Shown piece by piece: positions 5,224 to 18,814 of a stretch of DNA of 26,994 nucleotides; within the stretch, counting starts at the first letter, position 1; every line of letters begins with the position of its first letter. The position numbers were made by a program, and so were the translations under genes. Under the pieces are notes generated by a model that worked only from the letters and a program-made list of their open reading frames with translations, searched no databases and was not told where the DNA came from. This DNA comes from a virus (taxonomy: Duplodnaviria; Caudoviricetes), in IMG/VR virus record IMGVR_UViG_3300027749_000427, positions 1 to 26,994 of that record; one strand, 5' to 3'.

Positions 5224-6165
5224 CTATCTAATTCGTCCTTCAGCGTAGGCGGCATGAATTTCTGCTTCAATCTTCGCCGCTTCATCGTTTGTAATCTTGT
5301 TCTTCATCCAGTCATCGTAAAACTGCGAAATTTCAGCTTGGCTAAAGTTCGGTTTTTCGGTTCCCAAATTCTGAGCAGGCGTACTACGAGAGCGAGTCGG
5401 CGCTACTTGACTCGAAAGACTCGGTGTTCTTTGTTGGGTCTTAGGGGTAACCATGGATTTGTACTGATTGAAAATTGCAGCCGTTCGGTCTGCGTCAAAT
5501 GCCTCATAAGCATTATTCAATCCATACTGACGTGGCAGCCCGTAAACCGGGTCTACTTCAGCCAACCATGCCAAGAAACCTGAATCTACATTCAAAGCTT
5601 CCCAGTCAGGAATTTTTGTGCTCAAGCTGGATAGGAACCTGTCTTTATCAGATACCACCTGCCGATCACTTACGTTCCCAAGCTTACCTTTTAACTCTCT
5701 GATTTCCCCAAGCAACTCAGCATTGCGATTCCGAACTTCGGAAACTTTTTGCTCAGAGGCACGGTCAATCAAATCCAACAAGTCAGAACCAAATGCTTCT
5801 TTGTCTTGTTCAGTGATAAGAGTCGATTTCGTCGTCGATGGCGTATTAATCTGTTGTACTTTGGCAGCAGCATTCTCAGCAATCAAGCCTTGAACCTGTT
5901 GGTTCAGTTCTCGTGTCTGTGCGTGCAGTCGTGGCACTTCAGCGTCATACATTCCCTTGAGCGTCAGGTACTTTCGTTCCCACGTTTCTTCGGGCACCGT
6001 CTTCGGTTGCGGCTCTTGCGAGACTGGTTGCGGCGGGTCGTTCGCTTCTAATTGAAGGTCTGGATTCTGGTTAGTCTCCGCATTTGCTGCGGTCTGACCG
6101 TTCATCTGGGCTACATACGCATCTGCGTCATCAATTTGCTGCTGAATTACTCGTGGCAATGCCAT
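5224..6165 (-). CDS. Capsid scaffolding protein
   Basis: 313 aa, acidic and coiled-coil; WERKYLTLKGMY, PDWEALN..GFLAWL and C-terminal AYAEGRIR; located between portal and capsid; RBS AAGGAG. Confidence 0.8.
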   Translation of the reverse strand: MALPRVIQQQIDDADAYVAQMNGQTAANAETNQNPDLQLEANDPPQPVSQEPQPKTVPEETWERKYLTLKGMYDAEVPRLHAQTRELNQQVQGLIAENAAAKVQQINTPSTTKSTLITEQDKEAFGSDLLDLIDRASEQKVSEVRNRNAELLGEIRELKGKLGNVSDRQVVSDKDRFLSSLSTKIPDWEALNVDSGFLAWLAEVDPVYGLPRQYGLNNAYEAFDADRTAAIFNQYKSMVTPKTQQRTPSLSSQVAPTRSRSTPAQNLGTEKPNFSQAEISQFYDDWMKNKITNDEAAKIEAEIHAAYAEGRIR

Positions 6166-6296
6166 ATCTCTATCTCCTTCGCTCCGACTACGCTTTGAAA
6201 CTCCGACTTTACGGTCAGTTTCTATTCGCTTACGGTCTGCTACTTTAGGGTTTCAAATTTGACTGTAATCTCCGACTTAACGGTCTGATTACTGTC
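6166..6296 (-). promoter_or_regulatory. Structured cis-regulatory RNA leader of scaffold gene (three copies of one hairpin module)
   Basis: RNA modules GUAAUC-A-GAC-CGUUAA-GUC-GGA-GAUUAC (6292-6265), GAAAC-U-GAC-CGUAAA-GUC-GGA-GUUUC (6222-6197) and a split copy GC-A-GAC-CGUAA...GUC-GGA-GC (6240-6181) ending next to the RBS. Confidence 0.65.
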
Positions 6297-6522
6297 TTCG
6301 GGTTTTGGCAAACAAGGTTTCCCCTTGTTCCACCATCTCAAGGATTTCCTTGAGTTCGATTTGTCGGCCTTGCAGCCGACTCTTCATTTCTTCACCTGTT
6401 GCTTCGCCAAGTCTTTCAAGAGTCTCTTGGCGTCGCGCTTTTAAATATTCTACCAGTGGTTGCATGTCTTGGGTACGCATCAGTGAGAAACACCGAGCTA
6501 CCCGATCATCGACACGAATCAC
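6289..6522 (-). CDS. Small helical protein between portal and scaffold
   Basis: 77 aa, GTG start abutting upstream stop; RLQGR motif typical of small head-module proteins at this position. Confidence 0.7.
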   Translation of the reverse strand: MIRVDDRVARCFSLMRTQDMQPLVEYLKARRQETLERLGEATGEEMKSRLQGRQIELKEILEMVEQGETLFAKTRRQ

Positions 6523-6714
6523 TTATTTGCACATTCCGTCAGTTTTGGCACATTCAGAAGTGTATTCAGCACCGCCGCGTTTACCCAAACTCATAATATC
6601 GCCGTTATTGCCGCCTGCGCCTTGCGAGGCTGGGCCTTTAGACATACCGTCAGTTTTGGCGGATTCCTGCGCGTATTCTTTGGAACGCGATTCCATTGGT
6701 TTGATAGCTTGCAT
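6523..6714 (-). CDS. Small protein with internal duplication
   Basis: 63 aa, strong RBS AAGGAG; EYAQESAKTDGMSK and EYTSECAKTDGMCK repeats. Confidence 0.7.
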   Translation of the reverse strand: MQAIKPMESRSKEYAQESAKTDGMSKGPASQGAGGNNGDIMSLGKRGGAEYTSECAKTDGMCK

Positions 6715-6733: not shown

Positions 6734-6761
6734 ATAATATACTAAAAAATTACACTGTCAA
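6734..6761 (-). promoter_or_regulatory. Sigma70-type promoter for scaffold/capsid transcript
   Basis: TTGACA (6761-6756), 16 nt spacer, TATTAT (6739-6734); the -35 box contains the portal stop codon. Confidence 0.7.
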
Positions 6762-10957: not shown

Positions 10958-11127
10958 CAATACTTACCCTTCATGACGGGCTTGCCAGATTTTTTCATCT
11001 TGGCCTCTTCCATAGCCTCACCCTTCTTGTACATAGCTGGGGGCATTTTCTTCTCAGCTTTTTCTTCCTTAGCTGACTCTTTACCTTTGAACGTAGCCAT
11101 GAGAGCCGGGGGCATTTTGGTAGCCAT
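10957..11127 (-). CDS. Small K/M/E-rich protein, first gene of late operon
   Basis: Below cutoff. 56 aa MATKMPPALMATFKGKESAKEEKAEKKMPPAMYKKGE...KGKY; RBS AAGGA; KMPPA occurs twice. Confidence 0.7.
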   Translation of the reverse strand: MATKMPPALMATFKGKESAKEEKAEKKMPPAMYKKGEAMEEAKMKKSGKPVMKGKY

Positions 11128-15584: not shown

Positions 15585-16589
15585 ATGAGATATTCAGACA
15601 TACTCCAATCCTGCCTTGCCAACTTCGCCAAGGGTAACCAACTTGTACCCAACATCGAGGGCCGCCCGGGCGGCGGCAAGTCCACACTTGCACGGGAGAT
15701 CATCTCCCAGCTTGGCATCAGACCTGAGCGTATCACCGAGTTCAATCCATCATTGCGTGACCCCGTGGACATCATGGGTGTGCCTCGCACCGATGGCGAT
15801 GTAGCCAAGTGGATACCGATGCCTGAGTTCTATCGTATCCGTGACGATGGGACTGACGAGCCTTGTGCGCTAATCATCGAGGAGTTATCCGATGCGCCGA
15901 TGCCGATGCAAAATCCCATGTGCCGAGTTATCTTGGACAGACACGCGGGCGAATTGCAGTTGCACCGCAAGCTACACATCATTGCTTCAGGTAATCGTAC
16001 AGAGGACAAGTCTGGGGCTACCCGCATGAGTACCAAGCTAGGCAATCGTATGCAGACGCTGACCTTCGACGAGAATCTTGACGACTGGTGCTTGTGGGCA
16101 TTCGACAAGGGCATCGACCTAAAGATCATTCAGTTCCTGCGCTTCAAGCCAGCGTTGCTGTCTGACTTTGACCCCAATCGCAAGATCAACCCCACACCAC
16201 GTTCTTGGGCAATGGCTAACGATGTTGAGGAGACGCTGCCCACTGACTTGTACTTTGCCAATGTGGCTGGGTGCGTAGGCGAGGGTGCTGCTGCCGAGTA
16301 CACAGGGTTCAAGCGTATCTTCGAATCGTTACCCAACATAGATTCGCTGCTTATGAATCCAAGCAAGGCAGAGGTTCCTACTGACCCTGCGGTGCGCTAT
16401 GCGTTGGCTGGTGCAATCGCTCATCGTACTACCAAGGACAACTTTGACCGATGCATGGAGTTCATCGAGCGTATGCCATCTGACTTTCAGACTATGTACA
16501 TCATGGATGCGATGCGTCAGGATGCTTCGGTGCGCAACACCAAGGCGTATGTCAAGTGGACTGTGGCTAACGGCAATACTTATCTGTAA
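15585..16589 (+). CDS. MoxR-like (AAA_5) AAA+ ATPase
   Basis: Walker A GRPGGGKS, Walker B variant LIIEEL, sensor I ASGN, Arg finger LGNRM, sensor II PTPRSW. Confidence 0.88.
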   Translation: MRYSDILQSCLANFAKGNQLVPNIEGRPGGGKSTLAREIISQLGIRPERITEFNPSLRDPVDIMGVPRTDGDVAKWIPMPEFYRIRDDGTDEPCALIIEELSDAPMPMQNPMCRVILDRHAGELQLHRKLHIIASGNRTEDKSGATRMSTKLGNRMQTLTFDENLDDWCLWAFDKGIDLKIIQFLRFKPALLSDFDPNRKINPTPRSWAMANDVEETLPTDLYFANVAGCVGEGAAAEYTGFKRIFESLPNIDSLLMNPSKAEVPTDPAVRYALAGAIAHRTTKDNFDRCMEFIERMPSDFQTMYIMDAMRQDASVRNTKAYVKWTVANGNTYL

Positions 16590-16609
16590 CAACCAAGGAG
16601 AACATCATC

Positions 16610-17485
16610 ATGGAACTTAACGTCACCCCTCTCAATGCCAAAGCGATGCTGGTCAAGCTGACTGTGCGTAGGGCTAACCTATCACGGCGCGACACTGTGG
16701 CTGAATCGTTCGTGCAGAATCAACTGGACGACACATCCCTGATCGTGAGCAGCAAGCTGTTCCGCGACAAGTCCAACCCCATCAACCAGCTTATGACCAA
16801 GGTCAGCGAGGTATACACCAAGCACAAGGAGAACACACTACCCTACGTGGACAAGGGGCCGCGCATACTGCCGAACGTACAGTACTTCGATTACTCTAGC
16901 TTAATGCGTAGTGTCATTGCAGTGGTGGACAACATGAAGGCATTGCATATGCCTAACTACGACAAGTATGTGCAGCTTGATATCCAACAGCGCAGCATGG
17001 GCACTAACAGTAGGGCCACACTTGAAGACTACCCTACGGCGGAGGAGTTCGAATCCCGCATCGGGTTCGACTTGAGGTTCAGCCCGTTACCAGACGCCAG
17101 CCACTTCTTGTTCGATATCAGCGACGAGGACAAGTCAGCCTTCACCGACATGATGGCAACTGTCGAGCAGAGCGCACGCAACGAGACTATCAAGATGATG
17201 CTTGAGCCACTAGGTCACTTGGTAGAGAAACTGAACAAGCCCATTGGCACTGAGGGTTCTATCTTCCGTGAGTCTGCTATTGAGAACGTAATAGACAACA
17301 TCAACCGTGCCAAGAAGCTGAACGTGTCTGACGACCCTGAGATCACGACGATGATTAATACCTTGTCGTCCGCAGTGAACGTGTATACAGGCACTAACGT
17401 ACTACGCGAGTCGCCCATCGTGCGGGAGCAGGCTGCCAAGAAGTTAGATGAGATCGCACGTCAGATGGGAGCGCTGTACCGATGA
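16610..17485 (+). CDS. DUF3150-like helical protein
   Basis: 291 aa; TLPYxDKGPRILP, DYPTAEE and LNVSDDPE motifs; typical neighbour of phage AAA/VWA pairs. Confidence 0.6.
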   Translation: MELNVTPLNAKAMLVKLTVRRANLSRRDTVAESFVQNQLDDTSLIVSSKLFRDKSNPINQLMTKVSEVYTKHKENTLPYVDKGPRILPNVQYFDYSSLMRSVIAVVDNMKALHMPNYDKYVQLDIQQRSMGTNSRATLEDYPTAEEFESRIGFDLRFSPLPDASHFLFDISDEDKSAFTDMMATVEQSARNETIKMMLEPLGHLVEKLNKPIGTEGSIFRESAIENVIDNINRAKKLNVSDDPEITTMINTLSSAVNVYTGTNVLRESPIVREQAAKKLDEIARQMGALYR

Positions 17486-17703
17486 TTACTCTATCTGAGT
17501 TGGAACTGGTGCTGCTTATCGCAGTCACTGTCTTGGGCTTTGTTGTGTATTGGCAGTGGCGTGAGATGGAGGCAATGCGAGAGTTAGGGATACACCTGAT
17601 GGATGCCATGCGTGGTGTCGCTGACAATACATTGAGCATCAAGCGGGATGCGTCAGGCAACATTGAGGTTAACAAACTAAAGGAGAAACCAAATGGCAAT
17701 TAA
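17482..17703 (+). CDS. Small single-pass membrane protein
   Basis: LVLLIAVTVLGFVVYW hydrophobic segment; overlaps both neighbours. Confidence 0.7.
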   Translation: MITLSELELVLLIAVTVLGFVVYWQWREMEAMRELGIHLMDAMRGVADNTLSIKRDASGNIEVNKLKEKPNGN

Positions 17704-18814
17704 GAAGGCAAGTAACATGGACAAGGCGCGGTCACTGATCGTGCTTGACTATCCATTCGTGGCGAGCATCCTGCTTCGTCGTCCGTTCATTGAGACTAGG
17801 GAAGTGCCTACGCTGGCGGTAGATGGCAAGATGCGTATTTACTTCAACCCTGACTTCGTGGCTACGCTTACTGTGCAGCAGCTTGTGTGGGGCTTATGCC
17901 ATGAGGTGTTTCATATCGTAGGTCAGCACGCACTGCGTGTAGGTACACGTAACCACAAGAAGTGGAACTGGGCTGGTGATGCGTGGATTAACGATACGCT
18001 TGACGAGGCCAAGATGGGCGAGCGTATACCGGGCTGCGTAGATATGCCGGGCTCCAAGGATGACACTGTAGAGAATATCTACGACTCACTGCCTGACGAT
18101 GACGGTGGTGGTAGCGGTGGCCTTGGTAACGATGTCCACTTTACCGATGGCGTTGGTGATGGCAGCAAGCAGATGACCAAGGATGAGGTGCGTACTGTCA
18201 GTGGTGAGATCAAGGTGCAGATAGCCGAGGCTGCGCAGGCTGCCAAGATGCAGGGTAAGTTATCAGGCAGGCTGGCTGAGATCGTTGCAGAGGTGCTGGA
18301 TGTCAAGACACCTTGGTACGACATCGTTGAGAAGTATATGACTAGCTGTGTGCGGCAGGGTCAGTCATGGCGGCGTCCTAACAAGCGGTACACCGATGTG
18401 TACTTGCCCAGCGTAGATAAGCTACCACAGATGGGCGCACTTGTTGTGCAAGTTGATGTGTCTGGATCGGTGTCCAAGCGCGAGTTAGATTACTACAACG
18501 GTCACCTATCACGCATCATCGAGCAGACGCGACCTGAGAGCGTTCATGTTCTGTACACCGACACACAGGTTGTACGTCACGACGAGTTCGAGTGCGGCGA
18601 GGAGGTCAAGCTAGAGTTCTATTCGGGTGGTGGTACGCATATGCCAGCAGGGTTCGACTACTGCGCTGAGCATGGCATCGAGCCTGAGTTGTTCGTGTGC
18701 TTGACCGATGGCTACACCGACTTTGGCAATGACCCCGGCTATCCCGTGGTGTGGTGTATCAGCAGCGATGTTGTAGCCCCGCATGGCGAGAACGTACACT
18801 TTGAGATGGAGTAA
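17693..18814 (+). CDS. DUF2201-type putative metallopeptidase with VWA-like domain
   Basis: HEVFH (HExxH) zinc motif, G/D-rich linker, SWRRPNKR, MIDAS VDVSGS, GGGT, LTDGY. Confidence 0.88.
   Translation: MAIKKASNMDKARSLIVLDYPFVASILLRRPFIETREVPTLAVDGKMRIYFNPDFVATLTVQQLVWGLCHEVFHIVGQHALRVGTRNHKKWNWAGDAWINDTLDEAKMGERIPGCVDMPGSKDDTVENIYDSLPDDDGGGSGGLGNDVHFTDGVGDGSKQMTKDEVRTVSGEIKVQIAEAAQAAKMQGKLSGRLAEIVAEVLDVKTPWYDIVEKYMTSCVRQGQSWRRPNKRYTDVYLPSVDKLPQMGALVVQVDVSGSVSKRELDYYNGHLSRIIEQTRPESVHVLYTDTQVVRHDEFECGEEVKLEFYSGGGTHMPAGFDYCAEHGIEPELFVCLTDGYTDFGNDPGYPVVWCISSDVVAPHGENVHFEME

Follow-up and report, generated by a model that had tools for sequence, protein, structure and literature searches.

What does a small RNA fold do that is repeated three times in front of a phage structural gene? 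The question is raised by the window analysed here, a stretch of 26,994 nucleotides of caudoviricete DNA (IMG/VR record IMGVR_UViG_3300027749_000427), whose minus strand carries, in this order, terminase, portal (8902-6758), a 63-aa ORF (6523-6714), a 77-aa ORF (6289-6522), a 313-aa ORF (5224-6165) and the major capsid gene. The 313-aa ORF, located between the portal and major capsid genes, is likely to encode the capsid scaffolding protein. Our results suggest, with a probability of roughly 0.55, that the module, which is present in one to four copies at the start of this likely scaffold gene, is a translational operator bound by free scaffold protein. An earlier note on this DNA had proposed a protein-binding operator or switch with a conserved 1x3 internal loop; the translational operator is supported by what follows, and the switch and the 1x3 geometry are not.

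The core is indeed triplicated, as two intact copies and a split third that encloses the second. Intact cores are found twice on the minus strand of the window, at 6287-6270 and 6218-6201 (0.01 expected). Copy 1 (6261-6296, minus strand) is composed of a long outer stem, a 3x1 loop, a CCG/CGG helix and an apical loop of 6 nt, and it is followed by an unpaired A/U-rich linker (6241-6260) that includes one arm of a non-conserved alternative pairing. Copy 2 (6197-6222), with ensemble pair probabilities of 0.98-1.0, is nested within copy 3 (6181-6240), which has its 5' strand at 6240-6233, its 3' strand at 6189-6181 and a short middle stem formed by 6229-6227 with 6192-6190. The closing stem of copy 3 is 2 bp, its final paired base is positioned 15 nt ahead of the scaffold start codon and, as had been claimed, one base separates the end of this copy from the Shine-Dalgarno sequence (6174-6179), which is read from the sequence and conserved. 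The predicted fold of the whole leader beats 198 of 200 shuffled sequences (z -2.2). Put generally, an outer stem and a CC/GG helix are separated by an internal loop in which three bases, the last of them A, face a lone A or C. The four bases just 5' of copy 3 (6244-6241) are near-invariant in the nearer clade although they are predicted to be unpaired.

The pairing register of the core differs from the one first assigned, a GAC/GUC inner stem with a 1x3 loop: the predicted fold, the alignment fold, which picked CCG/CGG unprompted, and the pair counts all give CCG/CGG with a 3x1 loop. Of the 80 protein-found relatives, 79 include the scaffold start within their locus, and the 45 different leaders obtained from these share a near-uniform layout apart from exceptions of the L267 type; the alignment used for pair counting comprises 46 leaders selected from two collections of relatives. 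Over these 46 leaders the CCG/CGG helix is paired in 98.5, 100 and 99.3% of cells, compared with 93.0, 97.8 and 62.2% for GAC/GUC. The GAC/GUC register was rejected: it is paired in 62% of cells in copy 2, shows zero two-sided change in any inner helix and lowers the stability of the window sequence by 7.5 kcal/mol. In the CCG/CGG structure 90.3% of cells are paired (27-37% in slid controls) and two-sided change is seen in 14 of 28 pairs, the shuffle controls of these leader tests ignoring relatedness and being supportive rather than probabilities. Both conservation and covariation are thus present in homologous leaders, where the earlier note had suggested looking for them, and its description of outer stems that differ yet remain complementary is borne out by the same alignment. 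The stems vary freely with compensating changes while the loop bases are retained: the outer stem of copy 2 has three pairs with 17-18 two-sided changes per pair, the third inner pair is formed by G-C, A-U, C-G, U-A or G-U, and the second C-G pair has become U-A in one relative (L236). Every one of the 46 leaders retains the five core pairs of copy 3, whose middle stem is 89% paired. The apical loop, which had been included in the conserved part, varies freely in distant relatives and is not essential to the module.

A second fold had also been proposed, in which 6257-6250 pairs with 6201-6194 and disrupts copy 2. This pairing is present in the window sequence, and it has a probability of 0.001 and a cost of 4.4 kcal/mol; a complement of at least 6 bp for the alternative arm is found in 3 of 46 leaders (0.7 expected), two of which are near-identical. 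The alternative pairing is particular to this strain group, and because it is not conserved the leader offers no two-state switch with mutually exclusive pairings. This bears on the idea that the repeats form a small-ligand sensor or a DNA-level operator, which we consider very improbable. Short conserved repeats could be DNA sites, and riboswitches do occur in tandem copies. However, a ligand sensor would fit poorly with minimal members of about 20 nt, among which no conserved alternative fold or expression platform is seen, and split copies with inserts of 25-45 nt, the asymmetric loop and an excess of G-U over A-C cells all point to RNA of this strand rather than to DNA. The excess (90 versus 31 cells, and 42 versus 18 once four pairs are trimmed) is a modest sign that the minus strand would be the folded strand.

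How widely is the module distributed? An exact search of viral contigs with the 16-base core returned 119 loci, of which 111 have a scaffold relative nearby, and these include phages of about 30% identity with one copy directly before the Shine-Dalgarno sequence. The eight core matches without a scaffold match comprise one truncated gene and seven that have no outer stems and look like chance. To avoid selection on the motif itself, loci were also collected by protein alignment, and the leaders of 96 were read: 38 of the 45 genome loci (a cut locus and six with weak, partial matches were left out), 57 of 80 viral loci (close duplicates and leaderless loci were left out) and a Rhizobium phage. 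A module descriptor, written after inspection of these leaders and applied with some start calls uncertain, finds that 38 of 54 distant leaders (below 60% identity; 4.1 expected) carry the module at most 32 nt from the scaffold start, and the matches in L227, L231 and L235 may be due to chance. The sole independent test of the descriptor, which was left unchanged for it, is a held-out set of new metagenome loci, 76 of them with enough leader and 19 new at below 70% identity; the module is found in 16 of these 19 (1.4 expected). The descriptor fails in 16 of the 54 distant leaders and 3 of the 19 held-out ones. The misses include loop variants (L213, L219 and L221) and the compensated second pair of L236, and in the scaffold leaders of L212, L215, L223 and L374 no module was seen. 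The phage family that carries the module spans about 25-100% protein identity, with one to four copies per scaffold locus, and related loci are located in beta-, gamma- and deltaproteobacterial records, whose bin titles may not give the true hosts.

In most of the distant relatives examined the module is retained beside the ribosome-binding site. In 54 hits it overlaps the Shine-Dalgarno sequence in 20, lies within 3 nt of it in 25 and at 4-8 nt in 3, and six have no clear site, so that in 45 of 54 the Shine-Dalgarno sequence is included in the module or adjoins it. In one clade (L204, L206, L211, L368, L372 and others) the GGAG of the module is the Shine-Dalgarno sequence itself. The leaders of the next gene, which encodes the capsid protein, contain the module at chance level (5 of 50). 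Among 42 genes of the window the descriptor passes at two, the scaffold gene and one A/U-only match at 11127, and no convincing module precedes other phage genes in the window or in phage RHph_TM3_14A. The cis element is restricted to the scaffold initiation region, as would be expected of a P22-type system. The operator reading is favoured because the loop is conserved on freely changing stems, and because the copies vary from one to four while their position stays fixed at or over the Shine-Dalgarno sequence and they are absent from capsid leaders. We infer that a protein binds the module loop.

The module is also found inside coding regions. Copy 4 (6073-6099, minus strand), absent from the earlier note, is located at +67 to +93 of the scaffold coding region, in a predicted disordered linker. 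Its pattern, which was defined after inspection, recurs in 25 of the 31 dereplicated relatives of the nearer clade (below 85% identity), compared with 2.5 expected from synonymous codon resampling. The inner helix covaries (83.8% paired, two-sided change in 3 of 4 pairs, slid controls 17-43%), and the outer stem is imperfect in most relatives. Neither in the window nor in any of 22 close relatives does copy 4 pass the local ensemble filter, and its formation may therefore depend on binding. Distant relatives have in-gene copies in 5 of 54 cases, compared with 1 of 54 deeper in the gene. No long-range pairing between leader and coding region is predicted in a fold of 32 sequences, a fold that is also without copy 4, whose variable loop misaligns. 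In one contig, L267, a scaffold-like gene (55% identity) has an unrelated gene before it and no leader modules upstream of position 597, and it retains the in-gene copy; this is possibly a recombinant or chimeric contig.

The second coding-region case comes from a cultured phage. The only cultured phages that match the scaffold are four near-identical Rhizobium phages, and in the one in which the module was read, RHph_TM3_14A, there is no intergenic leader and the module is located within the preceding gene, some 50 nt ahead of the scaffold start. It has an outer stem of 8 bp and is the sole strict match in 10.7 kb; an outer stem of at least 6 bp was obtained in 0 of 20 shuffles. The module is retained under coding constraint where room is lacking, both here and in copy 4. 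This speaks to the proposal that no protein is needed and that the hairpins govern how stable the mRNA is, its processing at the A/U-rich linker or its translational coupling to the upstream gene. Copy 1 shares bases with the upstream stop codon, in many relatives it is swapped for a plain hairpin or an intrinsic terminator, and an A/U-rich linker flanked by hairpins is a typical context for RNA cleavage, all of which would agree with such a role. The fixed unpaired loop bases, the up to four repeats and the retention in two coding regions would be left unexplained by it, and we regard it as improbable.

The module was compared with known systems. The earlier note had not recognised the module as a named RNA family, in agreement with the Rfam 15 comparison: no match reached the gathering score in the window or in 20 distant loci, and the best E-value was 1.9, on the wrong strand. 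The coat-protein operators of MS2 and PP7 are single bulged hairpins at the ribosome-binding site in which the apical loop is the determinant. The module resembles them as a bulged hairpin at a ribosome-binding site, which in MS2 and PP7 is read by a capsid-assembly protein, and it differs in that its apical loop is free and its internal loop is repeated. Two structural motifs were considered and rejected. In a kink-turn, tandem G-A and A-G pairs come after a bulge of 3 nt, whereas Watson-Crick helices are present on both flanks of the module; the long strand of a C-loop starts with a conserved C, which is found at loop position 1 in 1 of 57 module calls.

In another reading the module could mimic the site of a host RNA-binding protein such as ribosomal protein S8 or CsrA/RsmA and link scaffold synthesis to the state of the host. 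A site of CsrA/RsmA exposes GGA in a hairpin loop. In the module both G of each GGA are paired (98-100% of cells) and the following A is replaced by C in 23 of 57 calls, and a CsrA/RsmA site was rejected. The S8 site (16S helix 21 and spc mRNA), as far as it is described in the passages of PMC4176348 that concern it, is a small asymmetric loop with a conserved A and operator logic, in which A642 is located 5' of the G597-C643 pair and the triples (G597-C643)-U641 and A595-(A596-U644) are formed. The module has a near-invariant A equivalent to A642 on the 5' side of a C-G pair in 46 of 57 calls (six being shifted duplicates). Unlike the S8 site as described there, the triple-forming U is present in just 14 of 57 calls, the base 5' of GG is usually paired with no unpaired equivalent of A595, and the module occurs in multiple copies at a phage structural gene. 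The retention of the module across prophage-like contigs of beta-, gamma- and deltaproteobacterial records would also be in keeping with a host partner. However, in 401 bacterial genomes the exact core, a narrow pattern, gave 14 matches, 13 of them inside long open frames, and no copy in a host leader, and recognition by a host protein appears quite unlikely. A description of the module was not found in the literature, and the core pattern is absent from those supplementary files of PMC8040213 that were searched; the supplementary motif sets of PMC5737381 and PMC8040213 may hold it. The module is a real and apparently uncatalogued cis-regulatory RNA motif of the translational-operator kind.

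Which phage protein, then, would read it? Free scaffold is favoured because the module is restricted to the scaffold gene and because there is a precedent in phage P22, whose scaffolding protein (gene 8) reportedly autoregulates its own translation. As in P22, the likely scaffold gene is located between the portal and coat genes, the scaffold is predicted to be helical with a C-terminal helix pair, and control would be confined to the scaffold start. Unlike in P22, where regulation is known genetically, a defined, covarying and repeated RNA site is here known from sequence, and no sequence relation of the 313-aa protein to gp8 was found. The 313-aa protein belongs to the unnamed family phrog_13678. 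Its model consists of long helices, a small helical domain and the C-terminal helix pair (mean pLDDT 75, pTM 0.31), in agreement with the P22 scaffold architecture as presented in the parts of 10.1101/2022.12.13.520362 that describe it. Weak matches link it to annotated scaffolds, both in the Atlas (0.92, 114 shared features, family on 25% of members) and in structure (Foldseek E 6e-4 and weaker), and structure searches gave no solved relative. Position, architecture and these weak matches are the basis for calling it a likely scaffolding protein. No recognised RNA-binding fold was found in its model or by structure searches, and its N-terminal helix is conserved and not basic. Residues 250-260 (window approximately 5420-5385, minus strand) lie ahead of the C-terminal helices in a segment modelled with low confidence; they form a basic motif that is conserved, its Leu, Gln and Pro being invariant, and are a candidate RNA- or coat-binding arm.

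Another phage protein could take the place of scaffold, most likely the 77-aa protein or else unassembled coat or portal, and we hold this to be possible though rather unlikely. The gene of the 77-aa protein has its stop codon within the outer stem of copy 1, and modules often begin at the stop codon of this gene in relatives. In nearly all loci a member of its family, known from 69 distinct sequences, is encoded immediately before the scaffold gene, and the family has an often basic stretch with an invariant Gln-Gly. However, the 77-aa protein is modelled as a plain helical hairpin (pLDDT 94) with no named fold match and is unnamed in Pfam, PHROGs and Atlas; the window has no module before the 77-aa gene or before the capsid gene; and the only known precedent has scaffold as the regulator. 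Co-occurrence cannot separate the two candidates, because the 77-aa gene accompanies the scaffold gene almost everywhere.

Under the preferred reading, in which free scaffold is the ligand, binding to the module would keep ribosomes from loading until the scaffold has been taken up by procapsids. The 30S footprint on the mRNA is taken to cover the closing stem of copy 3, so that a protein bound to the loop could stabilise this weak 2-bp stem inside the footprint; in the clade in which GGAG serves both purposes, the helix stabilised by binding would instead be the one that contains the Shine-Dalgarno sequence. Additional copies could make repression cooperative and responsive to scaffold oligomers. 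The module of RHph_TM3_14A is too far from the start for simple occlusion. The element would in this way set the stoichiometry of scaffold to capsid, as the earlier note had proposed. A bolder version, which we judge unlikely, is that scaffold is a sequence-specific RNA-binding protein whose oligomers clamp the initiation region via the four sites flanking the start codon, one of them in the coding region. The mRNA would then sense free scaffold cooperatively and also serve as a platform on which assembly begins of scaffold and, through scaffold, of coat translated from the same message; if true, procapsid assembly in a double-stranded DNA phage would have a start guided by RNA.

The autoregulation of the P22 scaffold has been known genetically since 1985, and the passages on it that were available to us define no RNA site. 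What is new here is a covariation-supported site of about 20 nt at the scaffold start, with natural versions of one to four copies and one cultured carrier. The module allows tests of whether scaffold recognises a specific RNA fold, whether cooperativity depends on the number of copies and how the ratio of head proteins is set; if verified, a protein-RNA pair this small would be a compact new regulatory part.

The transcription context of the leader can be described in part. Past the portal stop, a putative sigma-70-like promoter (6734-6761, minus strand) which the earlier note does not mention, matches the consensus at 11 of 12 positions and is conserved in 21 of 21 close relatives, where its spacer is likewise 16 nt long; judged from sequence, it would start a transcript of the 63-aa, 77-aa, scaffold and capsid genes. 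The 16-nt spacer of this near-consensus site is unusual, and late expression of head genes from it could require a phage activator. The 63-aa ORF is glycine-rich with an internal repeat of an 8-residue motif, is found in the nearer clade only and has no PHROG or Pfam family match. Across all loci, some sigma-70-like site matching at least 10 of 12 consensus positions was found in 26 of 52 tested, and strong sites near the scaffold gene were seen about 84 nt upstream in L232 (12 of 12) and about 298 nt upstream in L208 (11 of 12). In many gamma- and deltaproteobacterial loci a terminator-like hairpin, identified by eye, is located between the 77-aa gene and the module, and it is accompanied by a U-run in L213, L219, L220, L221, L222, L226, L228 and L233; in these prophage-like loci it suggests that scaffold and capsid depend on antitermination or have a promoter of their own. 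In public RNA data small shares were found in 11 runs, and contigs from four runs cover parts of the leader at depths of 2-6, from which transcription, strand and ends are not deducible. Elsewhere in the window (15585-18814, plus strand), adjoining ORFs resemble, by eye, what we take to be an AAA ATPase and a VWA-type protein.
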